The notes: generated by a model from the letters alone, not told the origin. DNA of 64,000 nucleotides from Candidatus Blackburnbacteria bacterium (GCA_016183565.1 JACPEJ010000001.1:226577-290576); one strand, 5' to 3'; positions 4,247-64,000 are shown, counted from the stretch's first letter. Program-made: numbers and translations.

Positions 4247-5437
4247 ATGGCAGAATCGAAATTTGAACGAACAAAACCACATATAAATGTTGGAACCATT
4301 GGTCATGTTGATCATGGTAAAACTACTCTTTCTGCAGCTATAACCCATGTATTGTCCAAACAACCTGGGAATTCTACAAAACCTCTAGGGTATGGTGATA
4401 TTGATAATGCTCCTGAAGAGAGAGAGCGCGGAGTTACAATTAACATTACCCATCTTGAATACGAGACTGAGAAGAGACACTATGCTCACATTGATGCTCC
4501 AGGTCATGCAGATTATATTAAGAATATGATTACTGGGGCAGCTCAGATGGATGGTGCTATTTTGGTAGTTTCTGCTCCAGATGGTGCGATGCCTCAAACC
4601 AGAGAACATGTTCTTTTAGCGCGACAAGTTAATGTGCCGGCTATTGTAGTTTTTCTTAATAAAACGGACATGGTTGACGATCCTGAACTTGTTGATCTTG
4701 TTGAAGTTGAAATTCGGGAGCTTCTTTCTAAATACCAATATCCAGGGGATGAAGTACCTATTGTTAGAGGTTCTGCACTTAAGGCTTTGGAAGGGGATGC
4801 TGAGGCAGAGAATCAAATTCTTGAGCTTATGAAGGCGGTTGATGAGTATATTCCAACTCCAGAGCGAGAAACCGAGAAGCCATTTTTGATGTCAGTTGAG
4901 GATGTTTTCTCTATAAAAGGTCGGGGAACTGTTGCAACTGGTCGTATAGAGCGCGGAAAAGTTAAGGTTAATGAGGAAACTGAGATTATAGGACTTAAGC
5001 CAACTAAAAAGACTGTTGTAACTGGTGTTGAGATGTTTAGGAAGTCTTTGGATGAAGGGCAAGCTGGGGATAACGTTGGTATTCTACTTCGCGGAATTGA
5101 AAAAGATGATATTGAGCGGGGTCAGGTTTTGGCAAAGCCGGGTAGTATTACTCCACATACTGAGTTTGAAGCAGAAGTTTATATTTTAACTAAAGAAGAG
5201 GGTGGTAGGCATACACCGTTCTTTTCAGGTTACAAGCCACAGTTTTATATAAGAACTACGGACGTTACCGGTGAGGTTACACTTCCTGAGGGTGTTGAGA
5301 TGGTTATGCCTGGGGATAGTGCAAAAATGAAGGTAAAGCTTATTCAACCGATTGCAATGGAAGAAGGTTTGAGGTTTGCTATTCGCGAAGGTGGAAGAAC
5401 TGTGGGAGCCGGGGTCCTTTCTAAGGTAATTGCCTAA
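4247..5437 (+). CDS. tuf: elongation factor Tu
   Basis: [22 protein letters not shown] motifs; 396 aa. Confidence 0.97.
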
Positions 5438-23397: not shown

Positions 23398-23468
23398 CGG
23401 GGAATAGTTTAACGGCAGAATGCGCCCATGGGGTGGGTGTGGTAGGTGTTCAATTCACCTTTCCCCGA
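23398..23468 (+). tRNA. tRNA-Pro (anticodon GGG), 71 nt, CCA not encoded
   Basis: hand-folded: perfect 7-bp acceptor stem cggggaa/ttccccg with the C1:G72 pair and A73 typical of bacterial tRNA-Pro; U8; D-loop with GG; anticodon stem cgccc/gggtg; loop aUGGGGu with U33 and G37; T-stem aggtg/cacct; T-loop TTCAATT. Confidence 0.8.
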
Positions 23469-33418: not shown

Positions 33419-33550
33419 TAGGTTTAGGTGAATCTGGCTCGCCCAATCTTACCTCTCGCCTTACCTACTATTCGTAGCGCGGCGCGAGGAGCGATTTAGG
33501 TCGAGCTGCGCCAAGTCAGACTTGGCTTGAAAGGAGGTGAGGGAAACAAA

Positions 33551-34234
33551 ATGACACTTTTTCAAGCGTGGCAGGTAGCTCTTTTTACTTCTTGGAATCA
33601 GATTTGGACTTCTTTTGTAGCTTTTTTACCAGCTTTTTTGGGTGCAGTAGTAGTTTTTGTGGTTGGTTTGTTTGTGGCAAGTTGGGGTAAAAAGCTTACA
33701 GAGAGTTTGTTGAGAGCTTTAAGGTTACAAGACCTATCGGAAAGTTCTGGTTTTGCGGGCTATTTAAAGAAAGCGGACATTCGACTTACAGCGACAGAGC
33801 TTGTAGGAACTCTTGTTAAATGGGTTTTACTCTTAATATTTTTTGTTGCTGCAGTGGATATAGTAGGTCTTACGGTTGTTTCAACTGTGTTAACGAGTGT
33901 TTTGGGTTATATACCGAATGTTTTGGCAGCAGCATTGGTTTTTGGCGCAGGAGTTCTTGTAGCAAACTTGGTTGATGGGTTAGTGCGGGGTGCTTTTGCA
34001 ACTATTGATCATGAAGCAGCGAGGCCGGTTGGGAAGTTGGCAAGATGGGTGGTTCTTGTAGTTGCCTTCTTTGCTGCTGTTGATCAACTAAAGATTGCAC
34101 AAACCTTAATTGATACGTTTTTCCAAGGTCTTACGTGGACATTGGTACTTATTTTTGGATTGTCGATAGGATTGGGAGGTAAGGATTTCGTGTCAAGGTT
34201 GTTGGATGATTGGTATAAGAGGATTCAAAAGTAA
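33551..34234 (+). CDS. hypothetical integral membrane protein
   Basis: SD aaggaggtga 12 nt upstream of the ATG; multiple TM helices. Confidence 0.55.
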   Translation: MTLFQAWQVALFTSWNQIWTSFVAFLPAFLGAVVVFVVGLFVASWGKKLTESLLRALRLQDLSESSGFAGYLKKADIRLTATELVGTLVKWVLLLIFFVAAVDIVGLTVVSTVLTSVLGYIPNVLAAALVFGAGVLVANLVDGLVRGAFATIDHEAARPVGKLARWVVLVVAFFAAVDQLKIAQTLIDTFFQGLTWTLVLIFGLSIGLGGKDFVSRLLDDWYKRIQK

Positions 34235-34256
34235 CCTGTAGAAAATTTGATTGTGT

Positions 34257-35366
34257 ATGAAACTTCGTAATTGGAGTATTGCGCTTTTAGCTCTGGGTTT
34301 GATTTTCTTTATTGTCTTTTTGTTTCCCTTAAAGGCGGATATTGTTAATGGGGGATCTAATTTTTTGGGTGAAAGTGGGTTTAAAAAGCTGTTGCGTTGG
34401 AAGCCTTCCTCAGATTATGTTCCAGGAGAGATTGCTCTGGGGAAAGTTTTTCAGGAAGATCACAGCTGGACAAAGAAATTAACAAATGGTCGGACGAGGG
34501 TACTTATAACCACTGGGGATGTTATGCTTGGGCGAGCCGTTAACCAGAAAACTGCCCAAAAAGGTGATTTTATTTGGCCTTTTCAAAATACTGCGGATTT
34601 TTTAAAAAGTGCTGATTTGACTTTTATAAATCTGGAGAGTCCGATTGTTGAGAATTGTCCGGTTAAAATAGATGGTATGACTTTTTGCGGTAACACAAGG
34701 CATGTTGAGGGTTTGCTGTTTTCTGGAATAGATGTTGCGAATTTGGCAAATAATCATATAGGAAATTATGGAACTGAGGGTTTGAATACAACAAGTAATT
34801 TTTTAGAAAGTGTTGGGATTCTTACTACGGGTAATTTGAAGCCAGCATACAAGGAATCAGGAGGAATGGTTTTTTCTTTTTTAGGATATAACGATATTCC
34901 TCCGAAGTTTGAAGGCGTTTCTTGGGTTGATGAGGAGAGGGTCGAAAGAGAAATTAAAGAGGCAAAAGCTAATAGTGATATAGTGATTGTTGCTTTTCAT
35001 TGGGGAGAAGAGTATAGGCGATTTCCAACCAAGCGACAGAAGAAATTGGCTCGGCTAGCTATTGACTTGGGAGCAAGTGTTGTAGTTGGCAATCATCCAC
35101 ACGCTATTCAACCTATTGAAGTATACAAAGGAGGATTAATTGTCTATTCGCATGGGAATTTTGTTTTTGATCAAATGTGGTCAGAGGGGACAAAGGAAGG
35201 AATAGTAGGCAGATTTGTTTTCTACGATGAGAAGTTGGTTGATGCAGAGTTCTTTCCGATTCGAATTGAGAATTATGGTCAACCCTATCTATTGACTGAC
35301 CAGAGGAAGGATGAGATTCTTGAAGAGTTAGAAAAAGACAGTAGGATACTAGCGGAGGGAGAGTAG
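34257..35366 (+). CDS. CapA/PgsA-family metallophosphatase (poly-gamma-glutamate synthesis-like)
   Basis: N-terminal TM; FHWGEEYRRFPT...VVGNHPHAIQPIE...YSHGNFVFDQ. Confidence 0.7.
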   Translation: MKLRNWSIALLALGLIFFIVFLFPLKADIVNGGSNFLGESGFKKLLRWKPSSDYVPGEIALGKVFQEDHSWTKKLTNGRTRVLITTGDVMLGRAVNQKTAQKGDFIWPFQNTADFLKSADLTFINLESPIVENCPVKIDGMTFCGNTRHVEGLLFSGIDVANLANNHIGNYGTEGLNTTSNFLESVGILTTGNLKPAYKESGGMVFSFLGYNDIPPKFEGVSWVDEERVEREIKEAKANSDIVIVAFHWGEEYRRFPTKRQKKLARLAIDLGASVVVGNHPHAIQPIEVYKGGLIVYSHGNFVFDQMWSEGTKEGIVGRFVFYDEKLVDAEFFPIRIENYGQPYLLTDQRKDEILEELEKDSRILAEGE

Positions 35367-35415
35367 GATGGATTATTCTTGACTAGTAGTTAACACGCAG
35401 TTCATACTGGGTTTA

Positions 35416-35985
35416 GTGCAACTTTCTTTAAGTCGAACATTGGGACAGATGAGGCTTGTTTTAAAGGACCCAGAAAGTGTTGGGCCTTTCACTGTTTATG
35501 AGGTTTTTCGCGATGATTCGGATGGTTGGGCAAACAAGACTGTAATTTATCCTGGTAAGTTGGGTGAGGAATATACAAAGACGTTTGGACATTATCATCC
35601 GGAGGGTGCGCCGGATGAAGTATATCGTGTGATTGAAGGGGAAGGTATTCTGGAGCTTCAGAAAAAACATTTGGGGAATGATCAATTGGTTTCTTTCCAG
35701 GTAGACGAAGTTTTATTGATAAAAGCCAAATCAGGGGATGAGATTGTTATTACCCCAGAATATGGTCATTCGTGGTCTAATGTAGGTAGTACTCCTTTGA
35801 TTCTTCTTGATGATTGGGAGGTTGGTCATACAGGAGCTGATTATGAGCAGATTGGGAAATTTCATGGTATGGCTTACTATCTTGTAGAACTAAACGGTGG
35901 GCCTAGAGCTTTTCCTAACCCAAATTACGAGAATCTTCCGGAGCCTGTTTTTTTGACAGCAAAGGAGTTTAAAAGACCCTCCTGA
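35416..35985 (+). CDS. cupin-type glucose-6-phosphate isomerase-like protein (cPGI family)
   Basis: TFGHYHPEGAPDEVYRVIEGEG and EYGHSW are consistent with the His/Glu metal site of cupin PGIs; start codon uncertain. Confidence 0.5.
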   Translation: MQLSLSRTLGQMRLVLKDPESVGPFTVYEVFRDDSDGWANKTVIYPGKLGEEYTKTFGHYHPEGAPDEVYRVIEGEGILELQKKHLGNDQLVSFQVDEVLLIKAKSGDEIVITPEYGHSWSNVGSTPLILLDDWEVGHTGADYEQIGKFHGMAYYLVELNGGPRAFPNPNYENLPEPVFLTAKEFKRPS

Positions 35986-36052
35986 TCTTACCATTCGCCT
36001 TCAGGTACTATTCGTACACGGCTCATGGAGCGATCTTAGGAGGGCAAGGGAG

Positions 36053-36256
36053 GTGATAATAGTGTACAAAACGGTAACTGCATATTTTAAAAAACATGTT
36101 TTATATAACTCATTGGTGCATGTTTTAGGAGGGGTGGGGGTAGGGATTCTTGTAGCGCGTCCATATGTTACCAACCCTGTTAGGTGGGGATTGGGGCTTT
36201 TAGTAATAAGTATAGTTGCTCACCTTTATCCTTTATTGACCAAAAGTTCTAAGTGA
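36053..36256 (+). CDS. small hypothetical membrane protein (67 aa)
   Basis: GTG start with SD aggagg 9 nt upstream; two TM helices. Confidence 0.45.
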   Translation: MIIVYKTVTAYFKKHVLYNSLVHVLGGVGVGILVARPYVTNPVRWGLGLLVISIVAHLYPLLTKSSK

Positions 36257-36279: not shown

Positions 36280-37812
36280 ATGCTTTCGAAGGTTTTTTCC
36301 GGAACTACGTTGGGTTTGTCGGGAATACCAATAGAGGTGGAGGTGGATGTTCCTTCACAGGGCTTTCCTTCGTTTAATATAGTAGGTCTTCCAGATAAGG
36401 CTGTGGAGGAGGCAAAGGAACGGATTCGCTCGGCAATAAAGAATTCTGGTGCGGATCTTCCTCCTAAAAGAATAACTGTAAACTTAGCTCCAGCGGATTT
36501 GCCAAAAGAAGGGCCATCTTTTGATTTGCCTATGGCAGTTGGGATACTACTTGCTTCGGAACAGTTGCCTAAGCAAGATCTTTCTCAAGCTCTTTTTTTA
36601 GGGGAACTGTCTCTTGATGGTTCGCTTCGACATACAAATGGGGTTTTGCCAATTGTGATGTTGGCAAGGGAAAAAGGCTTCAAGGAGGTTTTTTTGCCAT
36701 CAGTGAATGCGCAGGAGGCAGCTGTGGTAAGAGGGGTAAGGATTTATCCTGTTCAAAGTATAGTTGAGTTGATTCGCCATTTGGCAGGGGTTTCAAAGAT
36801 TACTTCAGTAGAACATCTGTCCCTTCAAGAGTTGTTTGAGTTGCCAACCTTGGAGTTTGATTTTGCCGAGGTTCAAGGACAGGAACATATAAAGCGGGCT
36901 TTAGAGATTGCGGCTTCCGGGGGTCACAATGTTTTTATGAAAGGTACGCCTGGGTCCGGAAAAACTATGCTTGCTCGTGCTTTTCCTGGGATTTTGCCTC
37001 GGTTGACAGAAGACGAGGCTTTGGATGTAACAAAGATTTATTCGATTACAGGCAACCTTCAGAGTGGTCAATCAGTTGTTCGTTCACGTCCGTTCAGAAG
37101 CCCACACCATACTACATCGCGTATTGGGTTGATAGGTGGAGGCAGTAAGCCTATGCCGGGTGAGATATCACTGGCCCATCGTGGAGTACTTTTTTTGGAC
37201 GAGTTCCCCGAATTCCCCCGACACGTTCTTGAGGCACTTCGTCAGCCTATGGAGGATGGGGTAGTTACTATCTCAAGGGCAGCTGGGACTGTTTCATATC
37301 CTGCAAGTTTTACTTTGGTTGCGGCATCTAACCCGTGCCCTTGTGGTTATTATGGTTCGGATGTTAAACCTTGTAAATGTCTTCCTGGGCAGGTTTCTAG
37401 ATACGAAAAAAGGATATCTGGGCCAATATTGGATAGAATTGATATACACTTGGAGGTTCCGTCTGTTAGGCCTGAGAAACTTTTGGGTCATCAAGCTTCT
37501 TGTGAGAGTTCTAAAGATATTCAAACAAGAGTTCAAGAGACGCGTGACGTACAGCTTAAAAGGTTTGGGGATTTGAAGATTAAGTCGAACGCTGAGATGA
37601 ATACTCGACAGGTACGCGAATTTTGTCCGCTTTCTTTGGAGTGTGAAGCTTTAATGCGGCAAGCGGTTTCTCAAATGAACTTATCTGCTCGCTCTTTTTA
37701 TAGGGTAATTAAGGTTAGCCGCACAGTTGCGGATATAGCAAGTACAAAAGAAATTTTGCTGGCACATTTAAAAGAAGCTCTTATGTACCGACCTCGCCAG
37801 GATGATCTTTAG
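36280..37812 (+). CDS. comM: Mg-chelatase-like AAA+ ATPase ComM/YifB
   Basis: Lon-like N-domain; GTPGSGKTMLA Walker A; C-terminal ChlI-type domain. Confidence 0.88.
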   Translation: MLSKVFSGTTLGLSGIPIEVEVDVPSQGFPSFNIVGLPDKAVEEAKERIRSAIKNSGADLPPKRITVNLAPADLPKEGPSFDLPMAVGILLASEQLPKQDLSQALFLGELSLDGSLRHTNGVLPIVMLAREKGFKEVFLPSVNAQEAAVVRGVRIYPVQSIVELIRHLAGVSKITSVEHLSLQELFELPTLEFDFAEVQGQEHIKRALEIAASGGHNVFMKGTPGSGKTMLARAFPGILPRLTEDEALDVTKIYSITGNLQSGQSVVRSRPFRSPHHTTSRIGLIGGGSKPMPGEISLAHRGVLFLDEFPEFPRHVLEALRQPMEDGVVTISRAAGTVSYPASFTLVAASNPCPCGYYGSDVKPCKCLPGQVSRYEKRISGPILDRIDIHLEVPSVRPEKLLGHQASCESSKDIQTRVQETRDVQLKRFGDLKIKSNAEMNTRQVREFCPLSLECEALMRQAVSQMNLSARSFYRVIKVSRTVADIASTKEILLAHLKEALMYRPRQDDL

Positions 37813-52568: not shown

Positions 52569-53507
52569 ATGCCCAAAAAACTTGTAAATTATTTTTCTGC
52601 GGAAGACCAATTCCTTTTTTATGTTTGCGCTTTTTGGGTCAGTGTAGTTTTTGCAGGTTTGGTTATAGGGGAGACAGGAAAGGTTAAGGCAGAGAGGGAA
52701 GTTCTTCCACCTCAGCCTTTTGTGCAGGAGGTGCCGCGAGTGCCAAAGCCCGATTTGAGGTCAGGTGCTATTTTACCGCCTGTTCTTTCTGCCAAGGCGG
52801 TGTATGTGGTTGATGATGAATCGGGGGAAGTGTTATTCTCGAAGAATGAGAGTGAGCCTGTTCTTCCTGCTTCGACTACAAAGATTGCGACTGCGTTGGT
52901 TGCCTTAACACACTATAATCTTCAGGATGTACTTACGGTTGGTAAGTTAGATGCTACTGGTCAAACTATGGATCTTCAGGTGGGTGAAGAGATGAGTGTG
53001 GAAAATCTTCTTTATGGGTTATTGATTTTTTCAGCTAATGATGCGGCGGAGGTATTGGCACAAAACTACCCAGGAGGTAGAAGTAATTTTATAGATGCGA
53101 TGAATCGTTTAGCGAAACAGCAAGGTTTGGAGAATACTCATTTTGTGAACCCTGTTGGTTTTGATGAATATTTGCATTTCTCTTCTGCACAAGATTTGAC
53201 TAAGTTAGCGCAGTACGCAATAAAAAACCCGGTGTTTGCAAAGATTGTTGCAACTCCTGAGTTTAGTGCAACTAATGTAGACGGAACTGCGGTGCATAAG
53301 CTTGCGAATATAAATGAGCTGATTGGTAAGGTGCCTGGTGTTTTGGGAATAAAGACTGGTTGGACTGAGAGTGCAGGAGAGTCGTTGATAACTTTGATTG
53401 AGAGGGATGGGCATAAGGTTGTTATTTCTCTTTTGGGGAGTGCTGATCGTTTTGAAGAGACAAAGGTTCTTTTGGATTGGATATTTGGGAGTTATGAGTG
53501 GAAGTAA
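52569..53507 (+). CDS. D-alanyl-D-alanine carboxypeptidase (PBP5/6 family)
   Basis: SxxK (ASTTK), SxN (FSAND), KTG (IKTGWT). Confidence 0.8.
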   Translation: MPKKLVNYFSAEDQFLFYVCAFWVSVVFAGLVIGETGKVKAEREVLPPQPFVQEVPRVPKPDLRSGAILPPVLSAKAVYVVDDESGEVLFSKNESEPVLPASTTKIATALVALTHYNLQDVLTVGKLDATGQTMDLQVGEEMSVENLLYGLLIFSANDAAEVLAQNYPGGRSNFIDAMNRLAKQQGLENTHFVNPVGFDEYLHFSSAQDLTKLAQYAIKNPVFAKIVATPEFSATNVDGTAVHKLANINELIGKVPGVLGIKTGWTESAGESLITLIERDGHKVVISLLGSADRFEETKVLLDWIFGSYEWK

Positions 53508-53521
53508 TATGATATTATAAT

Positions 53522-53725
53522 GTGCTACACATGATGAAACCCGTTGATTTAACTAAACTTTTAAAGAAGTACACTTCAGGGTGGGTTGCACTGTCTAAAG
53601 ACTACAAAAGGGTGGTAGCTGCAGCTGAATCCTTAGAGGAGCTTGATGGGAGGCTGAAGAAGCTTAGAAATCCAAAAGTAGTTTTGATCTCTGCTGCACC
53701 TAATTATCGTAGTTTTATTACATAA
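53522..53725 (+). CDS. small protein (67 aa), DUF5678-like
   Basis: KKYTSGWVAL..D.KRVVAAAESLEEL...; coupled to the next gene by an ATAATGA overlap. Confidence 0.45.
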   Translation: MLHMMKPVDLTKLLKKYTSGWVALSKDYKRVVAAAESLEELDGRLKKLRNPKVVLISAAPNYRSFIT

Positions 53726-54129
53726 TGACACTTCCGTATTTTATGCTGCCTGGCGATCCCACCAAAGTTCTACGGCCACTTGTGCCAGTCAAATATAAGT
53801 ATCAAGGTAAAGAAACCAAACCCATACTTACCCTTATTGATTCAGGTGCTGACTACTCTTTTGCGACTCTCAAGATTGCTCTTTATTTGGGTATAAAATT
53901 TAAGGGTATTAAACCTGTATCAATTACTGGTTTTAACCAGGCTACAACAGGCTGTTTTCCCAAAGAGGTGGGTGTTGAGGTCGCAGGGCGAGAAATCCAG
54001 ATGCCAGTGTATTTTGGTGGCTCACTGACTCAGGAGTATCCCAGTATTTTAGGCCAGGATATATTCTTTGATAAAGCAAGAATTACATTTGAAAGATACA
54101 ATTGGAGTTTTGGTATCTATTGGCAGTGA
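53725..54129 (+). CDS. retropepsin-like aspartic protease
   Basis: LTLIDSGADYSF matches the D-S/T-G-A active-site motif; 134 aa. Confidence 0.6.
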   Translation: MTLPYFMLPGDPTKVLRPLVPVKYKYQGKETKPILTLIDSGADYSFATLKIALYLGIKFKGIKPVSITGFNQATTGCFPKEVGVEVAGREIQMPVYFGGSLTQEYPSILGQDIFFDKARITFERYNWSFGIYWQ

Positions 54130-54163: not shown

Positions 54164-55207
54164 TTAGTTTCCGTAATATTCGGGGGTGATGGCGGGGATA
54201 AAGCTTCGGAAGTTGTTGTCTCCCTCGAAGGCGAAGACTGGTTGGAGGAATTGTTGGGGGGTTCCTGAATCATAATACGCAAGATAAACTCTTCTTATAG
54301 GTATGTTTCCGCCGGTTGGCGGAGCGGAGATTATAAGAGCCTTGCCACTTGTTAGTTCCTCCCAGGCGGTTTGTACAGTCTTTATAGGATAGGTAGATTT
54401 TTGCTCTTGGGATATTGGGAAGTAATGATATTCTCCGGCGACAATTTGGCGTGGTCCGTATGTTTCTCCTGAGACTAAAAGCCACACGGTTGAACGGTCT
54501 ATCTTTGGGGTTAGAATTGGTAGGTTATTGTAGTCCTGTCTCCAAAAGTTAACTCTTACGAAGTTTGCTTGGGATATGGAGGACACAGTTTCGAGAGCCT
54601 CAGGCGCGCTGCGCAAGAATTCGAAGGTTTGTCGGCCTTGTACTAAATCTTGAGCAAGGAGGCTAGCGGAGTTTAGGAAGGAACGTGCACTTTGGCTTGC
54701 GTCTTCGGTTGATTTTGGGTGAAGGTTTAGTAATTCTGTGTCTTGATTTAAGTTGTAACTGAGAGATAGTGTTCGGTTGACTATGTTTATATCTAATACC
54801 GAAGGAACGGTTGGATGTTGGAATCTGTATGTGACATCTGATAAAGCAGTGACTTCTTTGGGGAAACCGAGATATTTTGCAATTCTTGATGCTTCGTCAA
54901 GGTTTAAAAAGGAGGTTTGTGGTGTGGGCATAAAATGGACCGTTGCCTGGGATGAGAATTTTGGTAGTTCTCCGGTTGGTGTTTGTAAAGAATAGGAAAA
55001 GGTTGGTAAACCCGGTTTGGGTGTGAATACAATTGCAGGGAGTTTTTTAAACCTCACCTCTGGTGGTGGAGGAGGAGCGGGAAAAAAATGCCGGTAAGTG
55101 CTGAAGCCTGCGACCCAGGCGATACGAAGACCCAGGAGGATACTTATAAAAATTATTCCGTACTTGATTACACTTCTGGACCAATAGGCGGTTTCAGTTA
55201 GTGTCAT
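54164..55207 (-). CDS. hypothetical membrane-anchored extracytoplasmic protein
   Basis: N-terminal TM helix then a PPPPPE linker; 347 aa. Confidence 0.5.
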   Translation of the reverse strand: MTLTETAYWSRSVIKYGIIFISILLGLRIAWVAGFSTYRHFFPAPPPPPEVRFKKLPAIVFTPKPGLPTFSYSLQTPTGELPKFSSQATVHFMPTPQTSFLNLDEASRIAKYLGFPKEVTALSDVTYRFQHPTVPSVLDINIVNRTLSLSYNLNQDTELLNLHPKSTEDASQSARSFLNSASLLAQDLVQGRQTFEFLRSAPEALETVSSISQANFVRVNFWRQDYNNLPILTPKIDRSTVWLLVSGETYGPRQIVAGEYHYFPISQEQKSTYPIKTVQTAWEELTSGKALIISAPPTGGNIPIRRVYLAYYDSGTPQQFLQPVFAFEGDNNFRSFIPAITPEYYGN

Positions 55208-58060: not shown

Positions 58061-61000
58061 ATGAAGATTGGAATATATAGTAGAATACTATCTTCAGCGT
58101 TAGTTCTTTCTTTGGTTTTTACACAAGGTGTTTTCCCCTCATTGGTTATTGCTCAAGAGGCAACTCAACCAGCTGAATTATTTAGTGGAATTGACGGCCA
58201 GGAACAGCAAACGCAGTTAACTTTAGAAATTACTCCTACACCATCAATAACTCCTACTGATACCCCAACTCCCACTGCAACCACAACCCCTACCACTACT
58301 CCAGAACCAAACCCTACGCCAACACCATTAAATCCACAAGCGCTATGGACAAATAATAATGATTCATACACAACAGAAATACTAAAATTAGGTGTAACCT
58401 ATAAATTCCCTCTTAACGAAAAAGTCAGTTTAACATTTACCAAACTTCCTACTGAATCTGGCACTGTCACGGTTACAGAACATGATGCGCCTGCCACTAT
58501 CAACAATCCAGGCAGCAAAGATTATGAAATTACTTCAACAATGGAGAATGGTAGTTTCGAATTTGACTTAACTCTACCAACTAATGATCCCAATAAAAAC
58601 GTTCTTTCCTCCCAGGATGGACAAAATTATTCTCCTCTTAATAATGAAAAAATAACATCTTTAGATGCGGTCACTATTAAAGGCATCAATCATCTAACCC
58701 ATTTTTTAGTAGGGGAGTTAAATAATTCTAATGATACTAAACATCCGGTTATTAATGAGTTCTTTTCTAGTGGATCAAACGACTGGATAGAATTATATAA
58801 CCCTAGAGCGGACCCAATAGATTTGTCTGGGTGGAAGTTGGATGATAACGGAGGTACCTCAGCTGTATATACCTTTGGCTCGGTAACTATCCCGGCGGGA
58901 GGGTTTGTCCTACAAGGTGGTACTTTCGGCTTAAACAATGACGGAGATACGGTAAGGCTTATCGACTCCTCAGGCAATACTAGAGACGCTGTTCCATATG
59001 GATCAGAACCTAATGCTTTATTAGCAGCCCCAAGTTCATCCCAATCTGGTAGACGAATAATCAATAGCGGAACTACCTGGGAAATATCATCTAATATTAC
59101 TCAAGGTTTTACTAACGAGAATTCCATTATTTATGTTGATGACAGTTACACAGAAGGCAGCGAATTCGGCACCACTACTTTTCCATTTAACACCATCCAG
59201 GAAGGAGTTAATGCGGTTATATCCGGCGGTACAGTCAATGTGGCGGCGGGAACATACACAGAATCTGTTGTTGTAAATAAAACTTTGACATTGTCTGGGG
59301 TTGGTGCAACCACTGTTATTAGTCCAACAGTTGACCAGGATGGTATTAAAGTTACAGCAAACAATGTGGTAATAAAGGACTTAAAAGTTGTTACGTCTAA
59401 TTCTGGTGTTACTCCTAATATTGCAGTTCGGATTGAGGGAACAAGCGGAGTTGAAATTAGCGGCAATGTGATTGAAACTACCGGCAACAAAGCCATGGGA
59501 ATTTGGATCTGTGGCACTACTTCCGGTTGCTCAACGACCAGCAACCTAACTATAAAAAAGAATACGATTACAATTAATGACTCCGCAACTGGTATTTATG
59601 CCGAAGAAGCCAGTCCTGCGCATGCTGGTTGGACAATTGGGGGGACAAGTACCTCTAACGCCAATACTATTACAGCTAATTTAGGCAATCCTTTAGAGCT
59701 TTATGATGTGTCAGCCTCAGAAGTTAGTTACAATAACCTTACTACAGCTGCGACGGGCGGATCTAATGTTATATGGTCAAGCCAATTATCTGATATCTCC
59801 AACTTGGTGTTTAAAAATAACACAGTTGTCGGCTCCGGAGGTAGTCAGGTTGCTTTCTTGACAGACTTTCTTGTTCTCGGTGACGGTTTGGCGAATACCC
59901 ATGTAAGTATCGTGACAATTTCAGAGAATACTTTTAGTAGTTGGGGTTCAAGAGCGTTAAGAATTGGAGATGGAGCTGGTGTAAACGGAACAACTGTTAC
60001 TGGAGTTACTATTAGTTCAAACACGTTTAATATGACCGCTGACCCGGAAGTTATTGGAGGTACGGCTGGTGGCAGTGCGACCGGAACTGGAAATACATTC
60101 AACGTAAGTGGAACAGCAAAAATCCAAAAAGCCATTGATGCTGCTAGAACCAACGATATAATCAACGTAGCAGTAGGAACATATACCGAGGACTTAACGA
60201 TTGCTTCGGGCAAGACGAATCTTGAACTGTCGGGGACTGGTTCACCAACTATTAAGGGCGTTTCAACAGTCCCCGTTGCGAATTATCCCCAAGCAGTGCC
60301 AAATATAGAAATTTTAGCAAGCGGAGTAAAGCTTCATGGCTTTACTATCGAAGGGCCTGATTATTCTGCCAGTACTTATGCAAGCGGTATGATTGTTGGT
60401 AGCTCAAACGTAGAAATTTACTCAAACGCTTTTAGGGTGCCTACGTACAGTAATGGTAATACTGCTATGAGCAATGCTATTCAAACTTGGCATAAGAATA
60501 ACAAACCAACTGTTGATATTTCAGGTCTGAATATCCATGACAATACTTTTGCTGGTTTGTCTTCTGAAAATGCTGGTTATGAGGGTATTTATCTAAACTT
60601 GGATACAGGCACTAGTGTTGCAACGATTCAAAATAATATTTTTACAGGCAATATTTTTCGTGCTATTACCACAGAAAGATCCAAGACTACTATTACTGGC
60701 AACACAATAACCAACAATCTTCCTGCAAGTGGTGGTAGTTATACGGGTACTGGTGGGTGGCAAGGTATAAATATAGGTGGTGCAAATGACTTTGGGGCGG
60801 TGACAGACATTTTGGTTTCTGCTAACACAATAACTGGGTCTAGTGAAGACAGAGGTTTTTCCTATGGTGTGAAACTAGGATTTAACTCGGTAAATGCGTT
60901 TAGTGGAGTTTCGGTGACAAACAACACAATACACAGAGCTGGTATTGCAGGAGTTCGGGTAATGCACACTGCAAACGGGATTTTGGCGAACACCAACGAT

Positions 61001-64000
61001 TTGTCTGATAATGTTTTGGGTGCAAAAAATGAAGATGCTACAAATATTCTTAATGCAATTAACAACTGGTGGGGAGTTGCGAGTCCGAGTTGGGCAAGTA
61101 CTGTTTTTGGGCTTGTCAGTTATGATCCTTGGTGGATGGATGCTAATAAAACGCTTCCATCAACATTTATTAACACCTTCAATACCATCCATGACGACCT
61201 TGTTGACCAAGATATAGAAAATAATATCGATACTTGTGGCACTCATCCAAATTCCTGCTCTGGGTTATATTTTAAAAAGGTGGTTAACGGAATCTCCCTG
61301 GGGAAACTGTTCTTTACCAATACGCTTGATTTAACCAGCAATGAAACAACAACATTTCTACAAAATCTTGGTAACAAACTTGAACAAGGCAGTGGTAGAA
61401 TTGCCTTTGATGCCAGAGAGTCATCATTATTTTCTGCCACCGGCGCCACTCTGGAAATGTATAACTTGCCTGTTGTTACCCAGTCAAACCTGGTTGTTAG
61501 AAATGATACTGGAACAATACTTGACCAGACAGGACTAATCAGTAATTTTAGCTATAGTACTGGACCAAATGCAGACGGAGACACCAATATTGTTTCTTTC
61601 AATGCTGCCCACTTCACGCAATTTGATATTGATACCACAAAACCGACAACTTTGGATAATGTTGATGGCGCATGGCACAACACAACTCAAACTATCACAT
61701 TAACATGCATCGATAATCTGTCCGGTTGTGACAAAACCTATTACACCACAGACGGAAGCATACCCACCACCAGTTCTTCCCAAGGCAATTCTGTTGTATT
61801 AGCTACGGACGGTACTTATACTATTAAATATTTCTCAGTTGATAAAGCTGGAAACGCAGAAGAGGTAAAAACCTCTGCCAACCAGATAAGAATTGACAAG
61901 ACCAATCCCGATGCTCCAATTGTTACTTCTATAGCAACTGATAATAAAATAAACAATGCAGAAAAATCAGCTATTGTGGTTACGGGAACTGCTGAGGCCA
62001 ACTCTTTGGTTAGCGTCACTTTAAGTGATGGCGCTAACAGTGTTACTAATACTCAACAATTAACCAATGGCGCTGCTAATTTTTCTGTTACTCTTAATGG
62101 GGCTAATGCTTTGCCAGCTGGTTTAACTGATGGTACTATTACTCCTTCTGTCACAGCCAAAGATGCTGCTAATAATGTTAGTAATCCTGCCACTACTCCC
62201 ATAGCTATTCTAGATACTGCTTCTCCTTTAGCGCCAAATATTACTCTACTTGATCCAATCAATAATTCTAATAAAACCGCAGTCACTATCACAGGCACAG
62301 GAGAAGCAAATGCAGCTATCAACTACACAATTACTGACAGCACTAACACAATCACTGGCACTTCTACTGTTAATAATGAAGGTGTAATTAATATCACCGG
62401 TATTAATGTATCAACGCTTATTGACGGAACACTTACCGCTAGTGTTACTATAATTGATACGGCAGGAAATATTAGCACTACTGGTGCTGATAGCGCTGCT
62501 AAAGACGCTGTTATTCCCAGTTTGTCCTCTGTAGGCCTATCTTCCAGTAATTCCAACAACGCCGCAGCAAAAGTAGGTGATACTGCTACTCTCACTTTTG
62601 TCTCTTCTGAATCTATTCAAGCGCCTACGGTGACAATTGCTGGTCATACCGTTACAGCTACTAATACTACTGGTAATACTTGGACTGCTATCTATACTCT
62701 GACACCAACGGACACAGAAGGGGTAGTTATTTTAACTATTGGGTTTGTTGACATAGTAGGAAATGCAGGAAATACAGTCAATGCCACGACAAATAACTCT
62801 TCTGTATTGTTTGATAAAACTGCTCCTTCTCAAATAGTAGCCAATCCGATTGCTGGATCTTATTCTTCAGCTCAAACTATTAGTTTTACCAGTAGCGGTA
62901 GTTCTGTCATTATGTATAGCACCACACAAACATTAAGTGGGTGTGCTTTTGGTAATGTTTATTCCTCACCTATTACCATCTCCTCGTCTACGAATCTTTT
63001 CACAATTTCGTGTGATGACGCTGGTAATAGCAGTAAGGCTGATTTTAGCTATACTATTGGTAACACTAATTTACAGCCGCCTTCAGAGAATCTTGGCCAG
63101 GTTTCCACTCCTGCCACTGTTATGTTAAATAATAATGCCAGTTTAGATGTAAGTGGTGGTCGGAATATAGCGGTAGGAGGGATTATAAAAGTCGATGGGG
63201 TGGATAAATCCCTGAGCAGTTTTTCTAGTAATGATCTGAGTAATAAAGATTTGACTGTTCCTCAATCGGTAGGTGGGCAATTAATTACTATTAATCAAGC
63301 TGTGAAGCTTGAGTCGACTTCTGATATTAGTTTGGCTAATGCTGATTTGACAAATGTTAATGTTTCTATTCCGAACAATACTACGGTTTTAGCGCCAACT
63401 GGGTGGGATGGTAGGATTCAACCGCCTAAGGCTGTTGGGGGTTCTGGTAGTGCACCAACGGGGTTTTCTTTGGGCAATACAGTTATTGAGGTTGGGTCAG
63501 CTGATACAGTACTGCTTTTTGACAAACCCGTTGTTGTAACTCTAAGCGGGGTTACGGGGGATGTGGGCTACAAAGCTGCAGGATCGACGACTTGGCACAA
63601 GATAGATACGATTTGTAATAGTTACGATAGTCCAACGAATGTTGTGTTTCCTGGAGAGTGTCGTGTTTCGAATGGCACGGACACGCGGATATACACTTAT
63701 CACTTCACGACTTTTGGTTCGTTGGATGTTGCTCCTGTGGTTTCTGGTGAAGGTTCTGTTGGGGGAGTAAGTGGTTTGTCAGCAAGTGGGGCCCCGGTTT
63801 GCGTGGACACTAAGCCTTCGAGTGCTCCTAAGCTTCTTTCAGCACAAATCACAGGTTTTAATGAGGTTACTTTAACATGGTCTCCTGCTTCGGATCCTGT
63901 TACATATTATTTAGTGGCCTATGGAACGAAATCGGGAGAGCTTGTTTATGGGAATCCGGATGTGGGAGGTAGGGGTACGACGAGTTTTACAGTTGAAGGA
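58061..64000 (+). CDS. giant secreted surface protein (>1980 aa; 3' end beyond the window): signal peptide, Thr/Pro linker, lamin-tail domain, parallel beta-helix repeats, Big/chitobiase-C-like Ig domains, FN3
   Basis: open frame 2 from ATG 58061 to the window end, not listed in the ORF track; LTD motif INEFFSSGSNDWIELYNPRADPIDLSGWKLDD; beta-helix repeats NVAAGTYTESVVVNKTLTLSG; YTTDGSIPT...YTIKYFSVDKAGNAE. Confidence 0.8.
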   Translation, partial: MKIGIYSRILSSALVLSLVFTQGVFPSLVIAQEATQPAELFSGIDGQEQQTQLTLEITPTPSITPTDTPTPTATTTPTTTPEPNPTPTPLNPQALWTNNNDSYTTEILKLGVTYKFPLNEKVSLTFTKLPTESGTVTVTEHDAPATINNPGSKDYEITSTMENGSFEFDLTLPTNDPNKNVLSSQDGQNYSPLNNEKITSLDAVTIKGINHLTHFLVGELNNSNDTKHPVINEFFSSGSNDWIELYNPRADPIDLSGWKLDDNGGTSAVYTFGSVTIPAGGFVLQGGTFGLNNDGDTVRLIDSSGNTRDAVPYGSEPNALLAAPSSSQSGRRIINSGTTWEISSNITQGFTNENSIIYVDDSYTEGSEFGTTTFPFNTIQEGVNAVISGGTVNVAAGTYTESVVVNKTLTLSGVGATTVISPTVDQDGIKVTANNVVIKDLKVVTSNSGVTPNIAVRIEGTSGVEISGNVIETTGNKAMGIWICGTTSGCSTTSNLTIKKNTITINDSATGIYAEEASPAHAGWTIGGTSTSNANTITANLGNPLELYDVSASEVSYNNLTTAATGGSNVIWSSQLSDISNLVFKNNTVVGSGGSQVAFLTDFLVLGDGLANTHVSIVTISENTFSSWGSRALRIGDGAGVNGTTVTGVTISSNTFNMTADPEVIGGTAGGSATGTGNTFNVSGTAKIQKAIDAARTNDIINVAVGTYTEDLTIASGKTNLELSGTGSPTIKGVSTVPVANYPQAVPNIEILASGVKLHGFTIEGPDYSASTYASGMIVGSSNVEIYSNAFRVPTYSNGNTAMSNAIQTWHKNNKPTVDISGLNIHDNTFAGLSSENAGYEGIYLNLDTGTSVATIQNNIFTGNIFRAITTERSKTTITGNTITNNLPASGGSYTGTGGWQGINIGGANDFGAVTDILVSANTITGSSEDRGFSYGVKLGFNSVNAFSGVSVTNNTIHRAGIAGVRVMHTANGILANTNDLSDNVLGAKNEDATNILNAINNWWGVASPSWASTVFGLVSYDPWWMDANKTLPSTFINTFNTIHDDLVDQDIENNIDTCGTHPNSCSGLYFKKVVNGISLGKLFFTNTLDLTSNETTTFLQNLGNKLEQGSGRIAFDARESSLFSATGATLEMYNLPVVTQSNLVVRNDTGTILDQTGLISNFSYSTGPNADGDTNIVSFNAAHFTQFDIDTTKPTTLDNVDGAWHNTTQTITLTCIDNLSGCDKTYYTTDGSIPTTSSSQGNSVVLATDGTYTIKYFSVDKAGNAEEVKTSANQIRIDKTNPDAPIVTSIATDNKINNAEKSAIVVTGTAEANSLVSVTLSDGANSVTNTQQLTNGAANFSVTLNGANALPAGLTDGTITPSVTAKDAANNVSNPATTPIAILDTASPLAPNITLLDPINNSNKTAVTITGTGEANAAINYTITDSTNTITGTSTVNNEGVINITGINVSTLIDGTLTASVTIIDTAGNISTTGADSAAKDAVIPSLSSVGLSSSNSNNAAAKVGDTATLTFVSSESIQAPTVTIAGHTVTATNTTGNTWTAIYTLTPTDTEGVVILTIGFVDIVGNAGNTVNATTNNSSVLFDKTAPSQIVANPIAGSYSSAQTISFTSSGSSVIMYSTTQTLSGCAFGNVYSSPITISSSTNLFTISCDDAGNSSKADFSYTIGNTNLQPPSENLGQVSTPATVMLNNNASLDVSGGRNIAVGGIIKVDGVDKSLSSFSSNDLSNKDLTVPQSVGGQLITINQAVKLESTSDISLANADLTNVNVSIPNNTTVLAPTGWDGRIQPPKAVGGSGSAPTGFSLGNTVIEVGSADTVLLFDKPVVVTLSGVTGDVGYKAAGSTTWHKIDTICNSYDSPTNVVFPGECRVSNGTDTRIYTYHFTTFGSLDVAPVVSGEGSVGGVSGLSASGAPVCVDTKPSSAPKLLSAQITGFNEVTLTWSPASDPVTYYLVAYGTKSGELVYGNPDVGGRGTTSFTVEG

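Follow-up and report, generated by a model that had tools for sequence, protein, structure and literature searches.

The 64,000-nucleotide (nt) stretch analyzed here, the window, belongs to a 686-kb contig of a Candidatus Blackburnbacteria metagenome-assembled genome (MAG), from the Microgenomates group of Patescibacteria (GCA_016183565.1 JACPEJ010000001.1:226577-290576). Two short overlapping genes on its + strand encode a small protein of family DUF5678 (53531..53725), hereafter the partner, and a retropepsin-like aspartic protease of clan AA (53725..54129, 134 residues). Our data showed that the two genes form a single unit, whose main hosts are bacteria of the Microgenomates (candidate phyla radiation). 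Both component families are already recognized by annotation pipelines, and what appears to be new is the obligate association with DUF5678. In the best-supported reading, the conserved unstructured tail at the C-terminus of the partner is an element recognized by the protease, and we tentatively favor an autonomous protease-regulator module, in which this tail would act as a pseudo-substrate in the protease cleft, as in a toxin-antitoxin (TA) or protease-inhibitor pair. An original prediction, made from the sequence of the window, had described the two open reading frames (ORFs) as translationally coupled and as a possible two-component unit, protease plus inhibitor or substrate.

Besides that of the window, four further genomic surroundings were represented among the closest protease homologues, and the small gene lay upstream wherever upstream DNA was readable. 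A scan of one genome per species returned 26 loci, distributed among Blackburn-, Davies-, Gottesman-, Levy- and Roizmanbacteria, other Patescibacteria, one Actinomycetota MAG and one Nitrosopumilus MAG, and a DUF5678-type ORF was directly upstream of the protease in each of them (26/26). Metagenomes contributed 80 more loci and viral contigs one more. A combined hidden Markov model (HMM) search of the window and 118 loci recovered 105 pairs, 74 of them non-redundant, with protease identities to the window ranging from 27 to 77%; the two-component unit of the original prediction was thereby borne out, the small gene standing beside the protease wherever the DNA could be read. Partnerless proteases in the 118 loci were found only at contig starts or as second fragments of broken genes. 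Partner genes for which no protease ORF was called were located at contig ends or beside broken genes, with the addition of one locus (L097) in which tblastn placed a protease match just downstream. No conserved third gene was found near the module, whose neighbors were ordinary housekeeping genes; flanks were common only to closely related genomes.

Overlaps of 8, 4 and 1 nt separated the start of the protease gene from the end of the partner gene in 26, 14 and 12 of the 74 pairs, respectively (52/74), while 12 pairs showed spacings of 0 to +3 nt and larger gaps were few. In the window, the partner stop and the protease start form a TAATG junction (53723..53727, +) with one base in common, TAA occupying 53723-53725 and ATG 53725-53727 in the context ...ATT ACA TAA TGA CA.... 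The ORFs first described (67 and 134 residues), this overlap and the peptides KKYTSGWVAL and LIDSGAD were all confirmed in the sequence. The two genes scored E 3e-44 and 5e-32 with the family HMMs, which matched no other ORF over the 64-kb window. The 8-, 4- and 1-nt overlaps that make up most junctions, and a Shine-Dalgarno-like motif before only 1/74 proteases, lend plausibility to translational coupling as originally proposed. Most simply, judging from these consensus matches, ribosomes that end translation of the partner ORF would go on to translate the protease. A frameshift fusion comparable to retroviral Gag-Pro was also considered, and rejected. Junction frames vary (+1 for the 8-nt overlap, -1 for the 4- and 1-nt overlaps, 0 for the 0- and 3-nt gaps, which are in frame behind a stop codon), and no natural partner-protease fusion was found among 150 deep-search matches.

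Public annotation of the pair consists of a 64-residue hypothetical protein and a 128-residue 'retroviral-like aspartic protease', and two start sites of this record are to be corrected. The longest ORF of the small gene (53522..53725, +) has 67 residues and a GTG start. A start at ATG 53531 (the NCBI call, 64 residues) or ATG 53534 (63 residues) is more likely, because the family consensus reads MK-x-[IV]-DL and because a TATAAT box (53516-53521) directly precedes the GTG at 53522, which is probably not used. As for the protease, the NCBI start corresponds to Met7, skipping window positions 53725-53742 (public annotation P0001). This choice cuts off an N-terminal x-[FY]-P-Y motif and masks the TAATG overlap. 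ATG 53725 is the better start, and the overlap is preferred with it, because Pro4 and Tyr5 of this motif are conserved at 89% and 97% (conservation percentages, here and below, are calculated over the 74 non-redundant partner-protease pairs).

The TATAAT hexamer (53516..53521, +), a -10-like element located 9 nt before ATG 53531 and recognized by consensus match only, is a candidate promoter of the module's own for a leaderless or near-leaderless transcript; an alternative promoter candidate was found at 53485-53513. Similar -10-like boxes, often TGnTATAAT, ended 6-9 nt before the partner ATG in 41/74 modules. As background, a -10-like hexamer was present 6-9 nt before the ATG of 29% of the long ORFs from the same loci, with a peak at 6 nt. 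Shine-Dalgarno-like motifs preceded 11/74 partners and 13% of these long ORFs. The frequency of the -10-like geometry and the scarcity of Shine-Dalgarno-like motifs among long ORFs suggest that many mRNAs of these Microgenomates are leaderless, and the consensus matches are consistent with a module that often has its own promoter.

The window protease scored 21 bits against Pfam family Asp_protease_2 (cut-off 24.3) and had no match at E <= 10 among NCBIfam models, including TIGR03698. Membership was clearer at the family level. In an alignment of 126 protease relatives, on which the Pfam, NCBIfam and PADLOC member counts are based, Asp_protease_2 was matched by 96/126 sequences (E <= 0.01), gag-asp_proteas by 79/126 and RVP by 39/126, and 34/126 weakly matched TIGR03698. 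An exhaustive profile search extended the family to 884 cluster representatives at E <= 1e-3, nearly all free-standing, 125-150 residues long and aligned end to end, and D-[ST]-G-[AS] was found in 141/148 deep-search protease matches. The protease adds one more member to a known group of stand-alone clan-AA proteins from prokaryotes (Asp_protease_2, distantly TIGR03698), described as COG3577/COG5550 by Llorens et al. in 2009 (PMC2642776). TIGR03698 (clan_AA_DTGF, the AF_0612 family) and Asp_protease_2 are of the same size class and likewise stand-alone and prokaryotic, but the window protease lacks an NCBIfam match, is below the Pfam cut-off and carries DSGA, not DTGF; no described partner was found for either family. 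While the original assignment to the retropepsin-like proteases was upheld, the accompanying statement that free-standing bacterial members are rare was overstated in view of the 884 representatives of this family alone. The same holds for their being functionally uncharacterized, as APRc, RimB and RloA have been studied. APRc/ApRick from Rickettsia is membrane-anchored (PMC4140852); RimB and RloA from Pseudomonas, members of a different subfamily, act together with ATP-grasp proteins and cleave sequences rich in glutamate (PMC11957791, PMC11957051).

Comparison with solved structures placed the family among retropepsins. The family profile matched the protease of equine infectious anemia virus (EIAV) at E 2e-7, retropepsins and DDI1 at E 2e-7 to 1e-4, and the Rickettsia ApRick structure at E 6e-3; solved proteases of DDI2, feline immunodeficiency virus, Ty3, human T-lymphotropic virus and Rous sarcoma virus (RSV) were matched as well. 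The catalytic motif L37-I-D39-S-G-A-D43 (53833..53853, +) aligned with LLDTGAD of EIAV and with the D25 region of the protease of human immunodeficiency virus (HIV). L37, D39, S40, G41 and A42 were invariant and D43 was conserved at 95%. A second clan-AA signature of the hydrophobic-hydrophobic-Gly type, I108-L-G110-Q-D112 (54046..54060, +), corresponds to IIGRN in HIV, and its ILGQ to ILGR/ILGRD in EIAV; G110 was invariant, L109 reached 97% and Q111 92%. P18 and F115 were also invariant. When HIV-1 protease was aligned to the family profile with hmmalign, D25 fell on D39, D29 on D43 and R8-P9-L10-V11 on R17-P18-L19-V20 (53773..53784, +), the equivalents of HIV R8, P9 and D29 being kept in the family. 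In the HIV protease dimer, R8 of either subunit forms a pair with D29 of its counterpart.

The AlphaFold model of the protease was of moderate confidence (predicted local distance difference test, pLDDT, 67.5, from a 12-sequence alignment), residues 106-134 (29) at the C-terminus being poor. A Foldseek search with this model matched almost only clan AA, the best 50 matches all being retroviral proteases. The DSGA motif, which the original prediction had expected in a pepsin-like fold, sits in a single-lobe pepsin/retropepsin fold. No signal peptide and no membrane segment were found in the protease sequence. By its sequence, the protease is considered a complete retropepsin-type catalytic unit, and family chemistry indicates that it should be a homodimer with one catalytic Asp (D39) per subunit. 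It shares with retroviral proteases (HIV-1, simian immunodeficiency virus, EIAV, RSV; MEROPS A2) the one-lobe clan-AA fold, the expected homodimer, the hydrophobic-hydrophobic-D-[ST]-G-A-D and hydrophobic-hydrophobic-Gly motifs and R-P-L-V before the first strand. It differs from them in being the product of a free-standing cellular gene rather than part of a polyprotein, in having some 16 additional residues at the N-terminus and 11 at the C-terminus, and in an identity of only 20-27%. A likeness in format is also offered by the eukaryotic DDI1/DDI2, whose cellular, soluble retropepsin domain of about 130 residues shows the same C-terminal extension pattern and was matched by the family profile at E 1e-5 over residues 21-129.

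That the two genes are mere neighbors without functional link, or that the protease is a catalytically dead scaffold, deserves hardly any credence. The scores of the window proteins slightly below Pfam gathering cut-offs and the low confidence of the 29 C-terminal residues in the protease model would speak for it, but adjacency was found in every testable one of the 118 loci, at 27-77% identity and in changing surroundings, and all catalytic residues are invariant.

The window partner scored 22.0-22.2 bits against Pfam DUF5678 (PF18929; cut-off 23.2), residues 9-53 covering profile positions 1-46 of 49. A profile search returned 335 homologues of 61-70 residues, many of which are tagged PF18929 already and one of which is named 'DUF5678 domain-containing protein' by NCBI; DUF5678 was matched by 104 of 109 aligned homologues (E <= 0.01). 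The DUF5678-like nature announced in the original prediction therefore held, and the partner can in practice be regarded on sequence grounds as a member slightly under the formal cut-off. Its AlphaFold model, based on the 109-homologue alignment, was confident (pLDDT 86.4). It consisted of a short helix (8-11), two strands (18-22 and 28-32), a helix (35-44) and a strand (50-54), followed by an unstructured end whose last four residues had an average pLDDT of 50. This compact fold had no match among solved structures. It showed no ribbon-helix-helix (RHH), helix-turn-helix (HTH), AbrB or Phd/YefM antitoxin DNA-binding domain, was not ubiquitin-like, and had no match in the fold search pointing to nucleic-acid binding. 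The partner is strongly basic (median isoelectric point, pI, 9.8).

The unstructured tail, AAPNYRSFIT in the window (53693..53722, +), is the proposed protease-recognition element. Its family consensus, A-S-x-N-Y-[F/R]-G-F-[V/I]-T, spans 10-11 residues that fall outside the Pfam DUF5678 domain, yet it is conserved as strongly as the core (Tyr 89%, Gly 81%, Phe 78%, Thr 82%) and is followed by 0-5 variable residues after the conserved Thr. Every synonymous codon was used for these residues (four for Gly, six for Arg, three for Thr). For this reason, it is the peptide that is under selection, rather than some RNA signal serving the start of the overlapping protease gene. Retropepsin substrates are bound as extended stretches of 7-10 residues, with a preference for aromatic or hydrophobic side chains on either side of the cleaved bond, and the length of the tail suits a peptide lying extended in such a cleft. 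The start of the tail, S-[QK]-N-Y, also resembles the HIV-1 matrix/capsid site SQNY/PIV, a likeness that serves as a lead and not as a test. No other protein of the window contained the tail motif, which was sought there as a mark of possible substrates.

The protease-regulator module that we tentatively favor would function as follows. The partner would be translated first, and the protease would be made only by ribosomes that had just completed the partner. In the protease dimer, which would be cytoplasmic, R17 and D43 would provide the equivalent of the inter-subunit R8-D29' pair of HIV protease. The aromatic unstructured tail of the partner would then occupy the substrate cleft as a pseudo-substrate or a slowly cleaved substrate and hold the protease inactive, like an antitoxin on its toxin or staphostatin on staphopain. 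Should the partner be lost or cleaved, the protease would be released to act on cellular or viral proteins. We infer physical binding, inhibition and any harmful or defensive action that the released protease would have.

The evidence for an interaction between tail and protease, together with obligate adjacency, applies equally to dedicated processing, in which the DUF5678 protein would be the protease's own substrate and its C-terminal peptide would be removed, perhaps by a cut following Tyr59, so that the partner matures or becomes active or a short peptide is set free. SpoIIGA, which cleaves pro-sigma-E encoded in the same operon, offers an analogy, and the aromatic, hydrophobic character of the tail around Y-[F/R]-G-F is usual for retropepsin sites; the 0-5 variable residues after the conserved Thr would be in line with a removed end. 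However, the residues past the tail motif are few and mostly fixed by the 8 nt shared with the start of the protease gene (-NG/-NA endings), so that the released peptide would be tiny and poorly conserved. Moreover, no downstream function is visible for the partner, and a discordant, relocating and decaying module, as described below, is less expected of a maturation pathway. We consider dedicated processing rather unlikely.

Other features of the partner could point to a positive cofactor, an adaptor or activator that helps the protease to dimerize, delivers substrates or tethers it to nucleic acid. According to review text in the RimB paper, the characterized bacterial A2-type peptidases involve other protein factors. 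The beta-sheets at retropepsin dimer interfaces could be extended by an extra strand, and the x-F/Y-P-Y motif at the protease N-terminus is conserved too. The very basic character of the partner would suit tethering, but many proteins in these AT-rich, Lys-rich proteomes have a high pI, the protease included (pI 8.9); in addition, the lack of any fold match suggesting nucleic-acid binding and the strict partner-first coupled translation, more typical of a protective arrangement, make this explanation unlikely. A repressor-protease switch of the ImmR/ImmA type, in which the small protein would be a DNA- or RNA-binding regulator inactivated by protease cleavage upon a signal, would draw on the same basic partner, on the promoter-like element of many modules and on gene order and overlap, which match immR-immA, regulator then protease (Makarova et al. 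2009, ImmA/COG2856). Such a switch is nevertheless improbable, given that no HTH, RHH or AbrB-like fold was found in the partner and that no integrase, mobile-element or regulated gene set was found conserved beside the module.

The module changes place among related genomes. In other Blackburnbacteria (L009, L013, L043-45), it is found between a gene for a mechanosensitive (MS) channel and DUF218/ComM. The window genome has orthologues of both flanks, the MS-channel gene at 33527-34234 (68-70% identity) and the ComM gene at 36280-37812 (71-72%), but the interval between them holds three unrelated ORFs and the module is 19 kb away; the proteases of these Blackburnbacteria modules are only 53-57% identical to that of the window. 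The content of this interval varies accordingly: ORFs of 371, 189 and 67 residues occupy 34251-36256 in the window, and the module plus the DUF218 gene occupy 2801-4049 in L013. Conversely, the window module shared 72% and 63% identity with those of two other loci (L003 and L041), whose adjacent S11 peptidase was only 33% identical to that of the window, although the S11 genes compared may be paralogues. In L035/L110, a housekeeping neighbor was 66% identical and the protease only 33%. Decay was also observed. Protease genes interrupted by frameshifts or premature stops were found at L009 4001-4415 (also L010 and L011), L034/L107 1376-1779 and L102 170-573; the partner was intact in L009 and maybe truncated at its N-terminus in L034/L107.

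These traits invite comparison with type II TA and protease-inhibitor operons such as staphopain-staphostatin. The likeness consists of two short overlapping genes predicted to be co-transcribed and co-translated, an upstream protein made of a folded core and a disordered conserved tail, and apparently patchy, shifting genomic locations with decayed copies. The confident core and unstructured tail of the modeled partner resemble an antitoxin, and a protective inhibitor or antitoxin arrangement would be in keeping with coupled translation of the partner first, with the relocation and discordant phylogeny of the module and with the decay of protease genes. On the other hand, type II TA systems differ in that the partner here has no known antitoxin DNA-binding fold and no plasmid copies were found, and staphostatin is encoded downstream of its protease, the reverse of the partner-first order described here. 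We know of no aspartic-protease toxin. Aspartic proteases were not mentioned in the 2009 TA survey by Makarova et al., and the association of DUF5678 with a protease, the tail motif and the behavior of the module were found in no paper, most subscription journals lying outside the search.

An independent hint of a defense-type role for the protease family came from PADLOC. Its models PDC-M52 and PDC-M08 are candidate two-gene phage-defense cassettes (A>>B) proposed from 'guilt by embedding' in defense systems (Payne et al., bioRxiv 10.1101/2024.01.29.577857), and their B proteins are related to the window protease family. PDC-M52B was matched by 102/126 members of this family and PDC-M08B by 58/126, with a best E of 9e-10, and the window protease itself weakly matched a PDC B model over its full length (E 0.018). 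The A models, in contrast, had no match at E <= 0.1 among 109 partner homologues. Because its DUF5678 partners do not match the A proteins, the window module is not a member of PDC-M52 or PDC-M08.

Several observations weigh against a regulatory, TA-like module. The window partner and its relatives lack a match to PDC-M52A or PDC-M08A. Covariation between partner and protease (mutual information with average product correction, 74 pairs) was uninformative in this small and phylogenetically structured sample, including the top pairs that linked tail residue R59 with R17, S45 and V95 of the protease. Binding of the tail in the cleft is only inferred. To our knowledge there is no TA system with a protease toxin, and this one would be without precedent. 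Furthermore, four Daviesbacteria share synteny around the module, with a RodZ-like HTH protein upstream and alanyl-tRNA synthetase (AlaRS) downstream, so that it can be stably inherited like an ordinary gene. With tblastn, no copy was found on any plasmid or phage record, and a single IMG/VR contig (L038), whose viral nature is weakly supported, has the pair. The compositional anomaly was weak as well, the local GC skew being 0.095 for a window mean of 0.225 (18th percentile).

Some surroundings of the module are worth recording. On the IMG/VR contig (UViG 3300029268_002474), a 22.9-kb sequence classed as viral, the divergent pair is located at one end (4792-5423) and adjoins a gene resembling those of sigma factors (phrog_351, E 2e-11) and a weak match to a tail protein (E 6e-4). 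A gene for an S11 D-Ala-D-Ala carboxypeptidase adjoins the module in three arrangements: upstream in the window (52569-53507), downstream with a 4-nt overlap in L003 (4402-5337) and downstream in L041 (3892-4833); coincidence, paralogy or a loose functional link could be the cause. Also beside the module in L003 (304-3501) is an FtsH protein of 1065 residues, in which an intein (Intein_splicing, with a faint LAGLIDADG match) separates the AAA and peptidase M41 parts. Downstream of the pair in the window, a 347-residue ORF on the - strand (54164-55207) has an N-terminal membrane segment and no Pfam match. The + strand GC skew over this ORF is 0.295, as high as in the surrounding + strand genes, which makes its own coding strand C-rich, unlike that of its neighbors. 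From 58061 to 64000 (+), an open frame of at least 1980 codons with a signal-peptide-like N-terminus runs past the end of the window. It probably encodes a giant surface protein and accounts for the lack of listed long ORFs and for the drop in GC skew in this region. ARAGORN predicted a tRNA-Pro(GGG) at 23398-23468; when the entire window was scanned against Rfam with gathering thresholds, no match was returned, not even this tRNA.

Stand-alone prokaryotic retropepsin-like proteases are numerous in metagenomes, and a role is known for only three or four of them. A fixed partner bearing a short peptide motif as the likely contact point provides an entry to a family without known function, and the conserved C-terminal tail gives concrete form to the 'inhibitor or substrate' idea of the original prediction. 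DUF5678, for its part, gains a first functional context. It is possible, if doubtful, that the module represents the first TA-like or abortive-infection-like system with a retropepsin-type effector, held in check by a DUF5678 pseudo-substrate tail and widespread and mobile in ultra-small candidate-phyla bacteria, in which case DUF5678 would be a new antitoxin or inhibitor scaffold. If the partner is an inhibitor, it would be a protein that naturally inhibits an HIV-protease-like enzyme as a pseudo-substrate, and aspartic proteases would join the known effector types of TA and defense cassettes.

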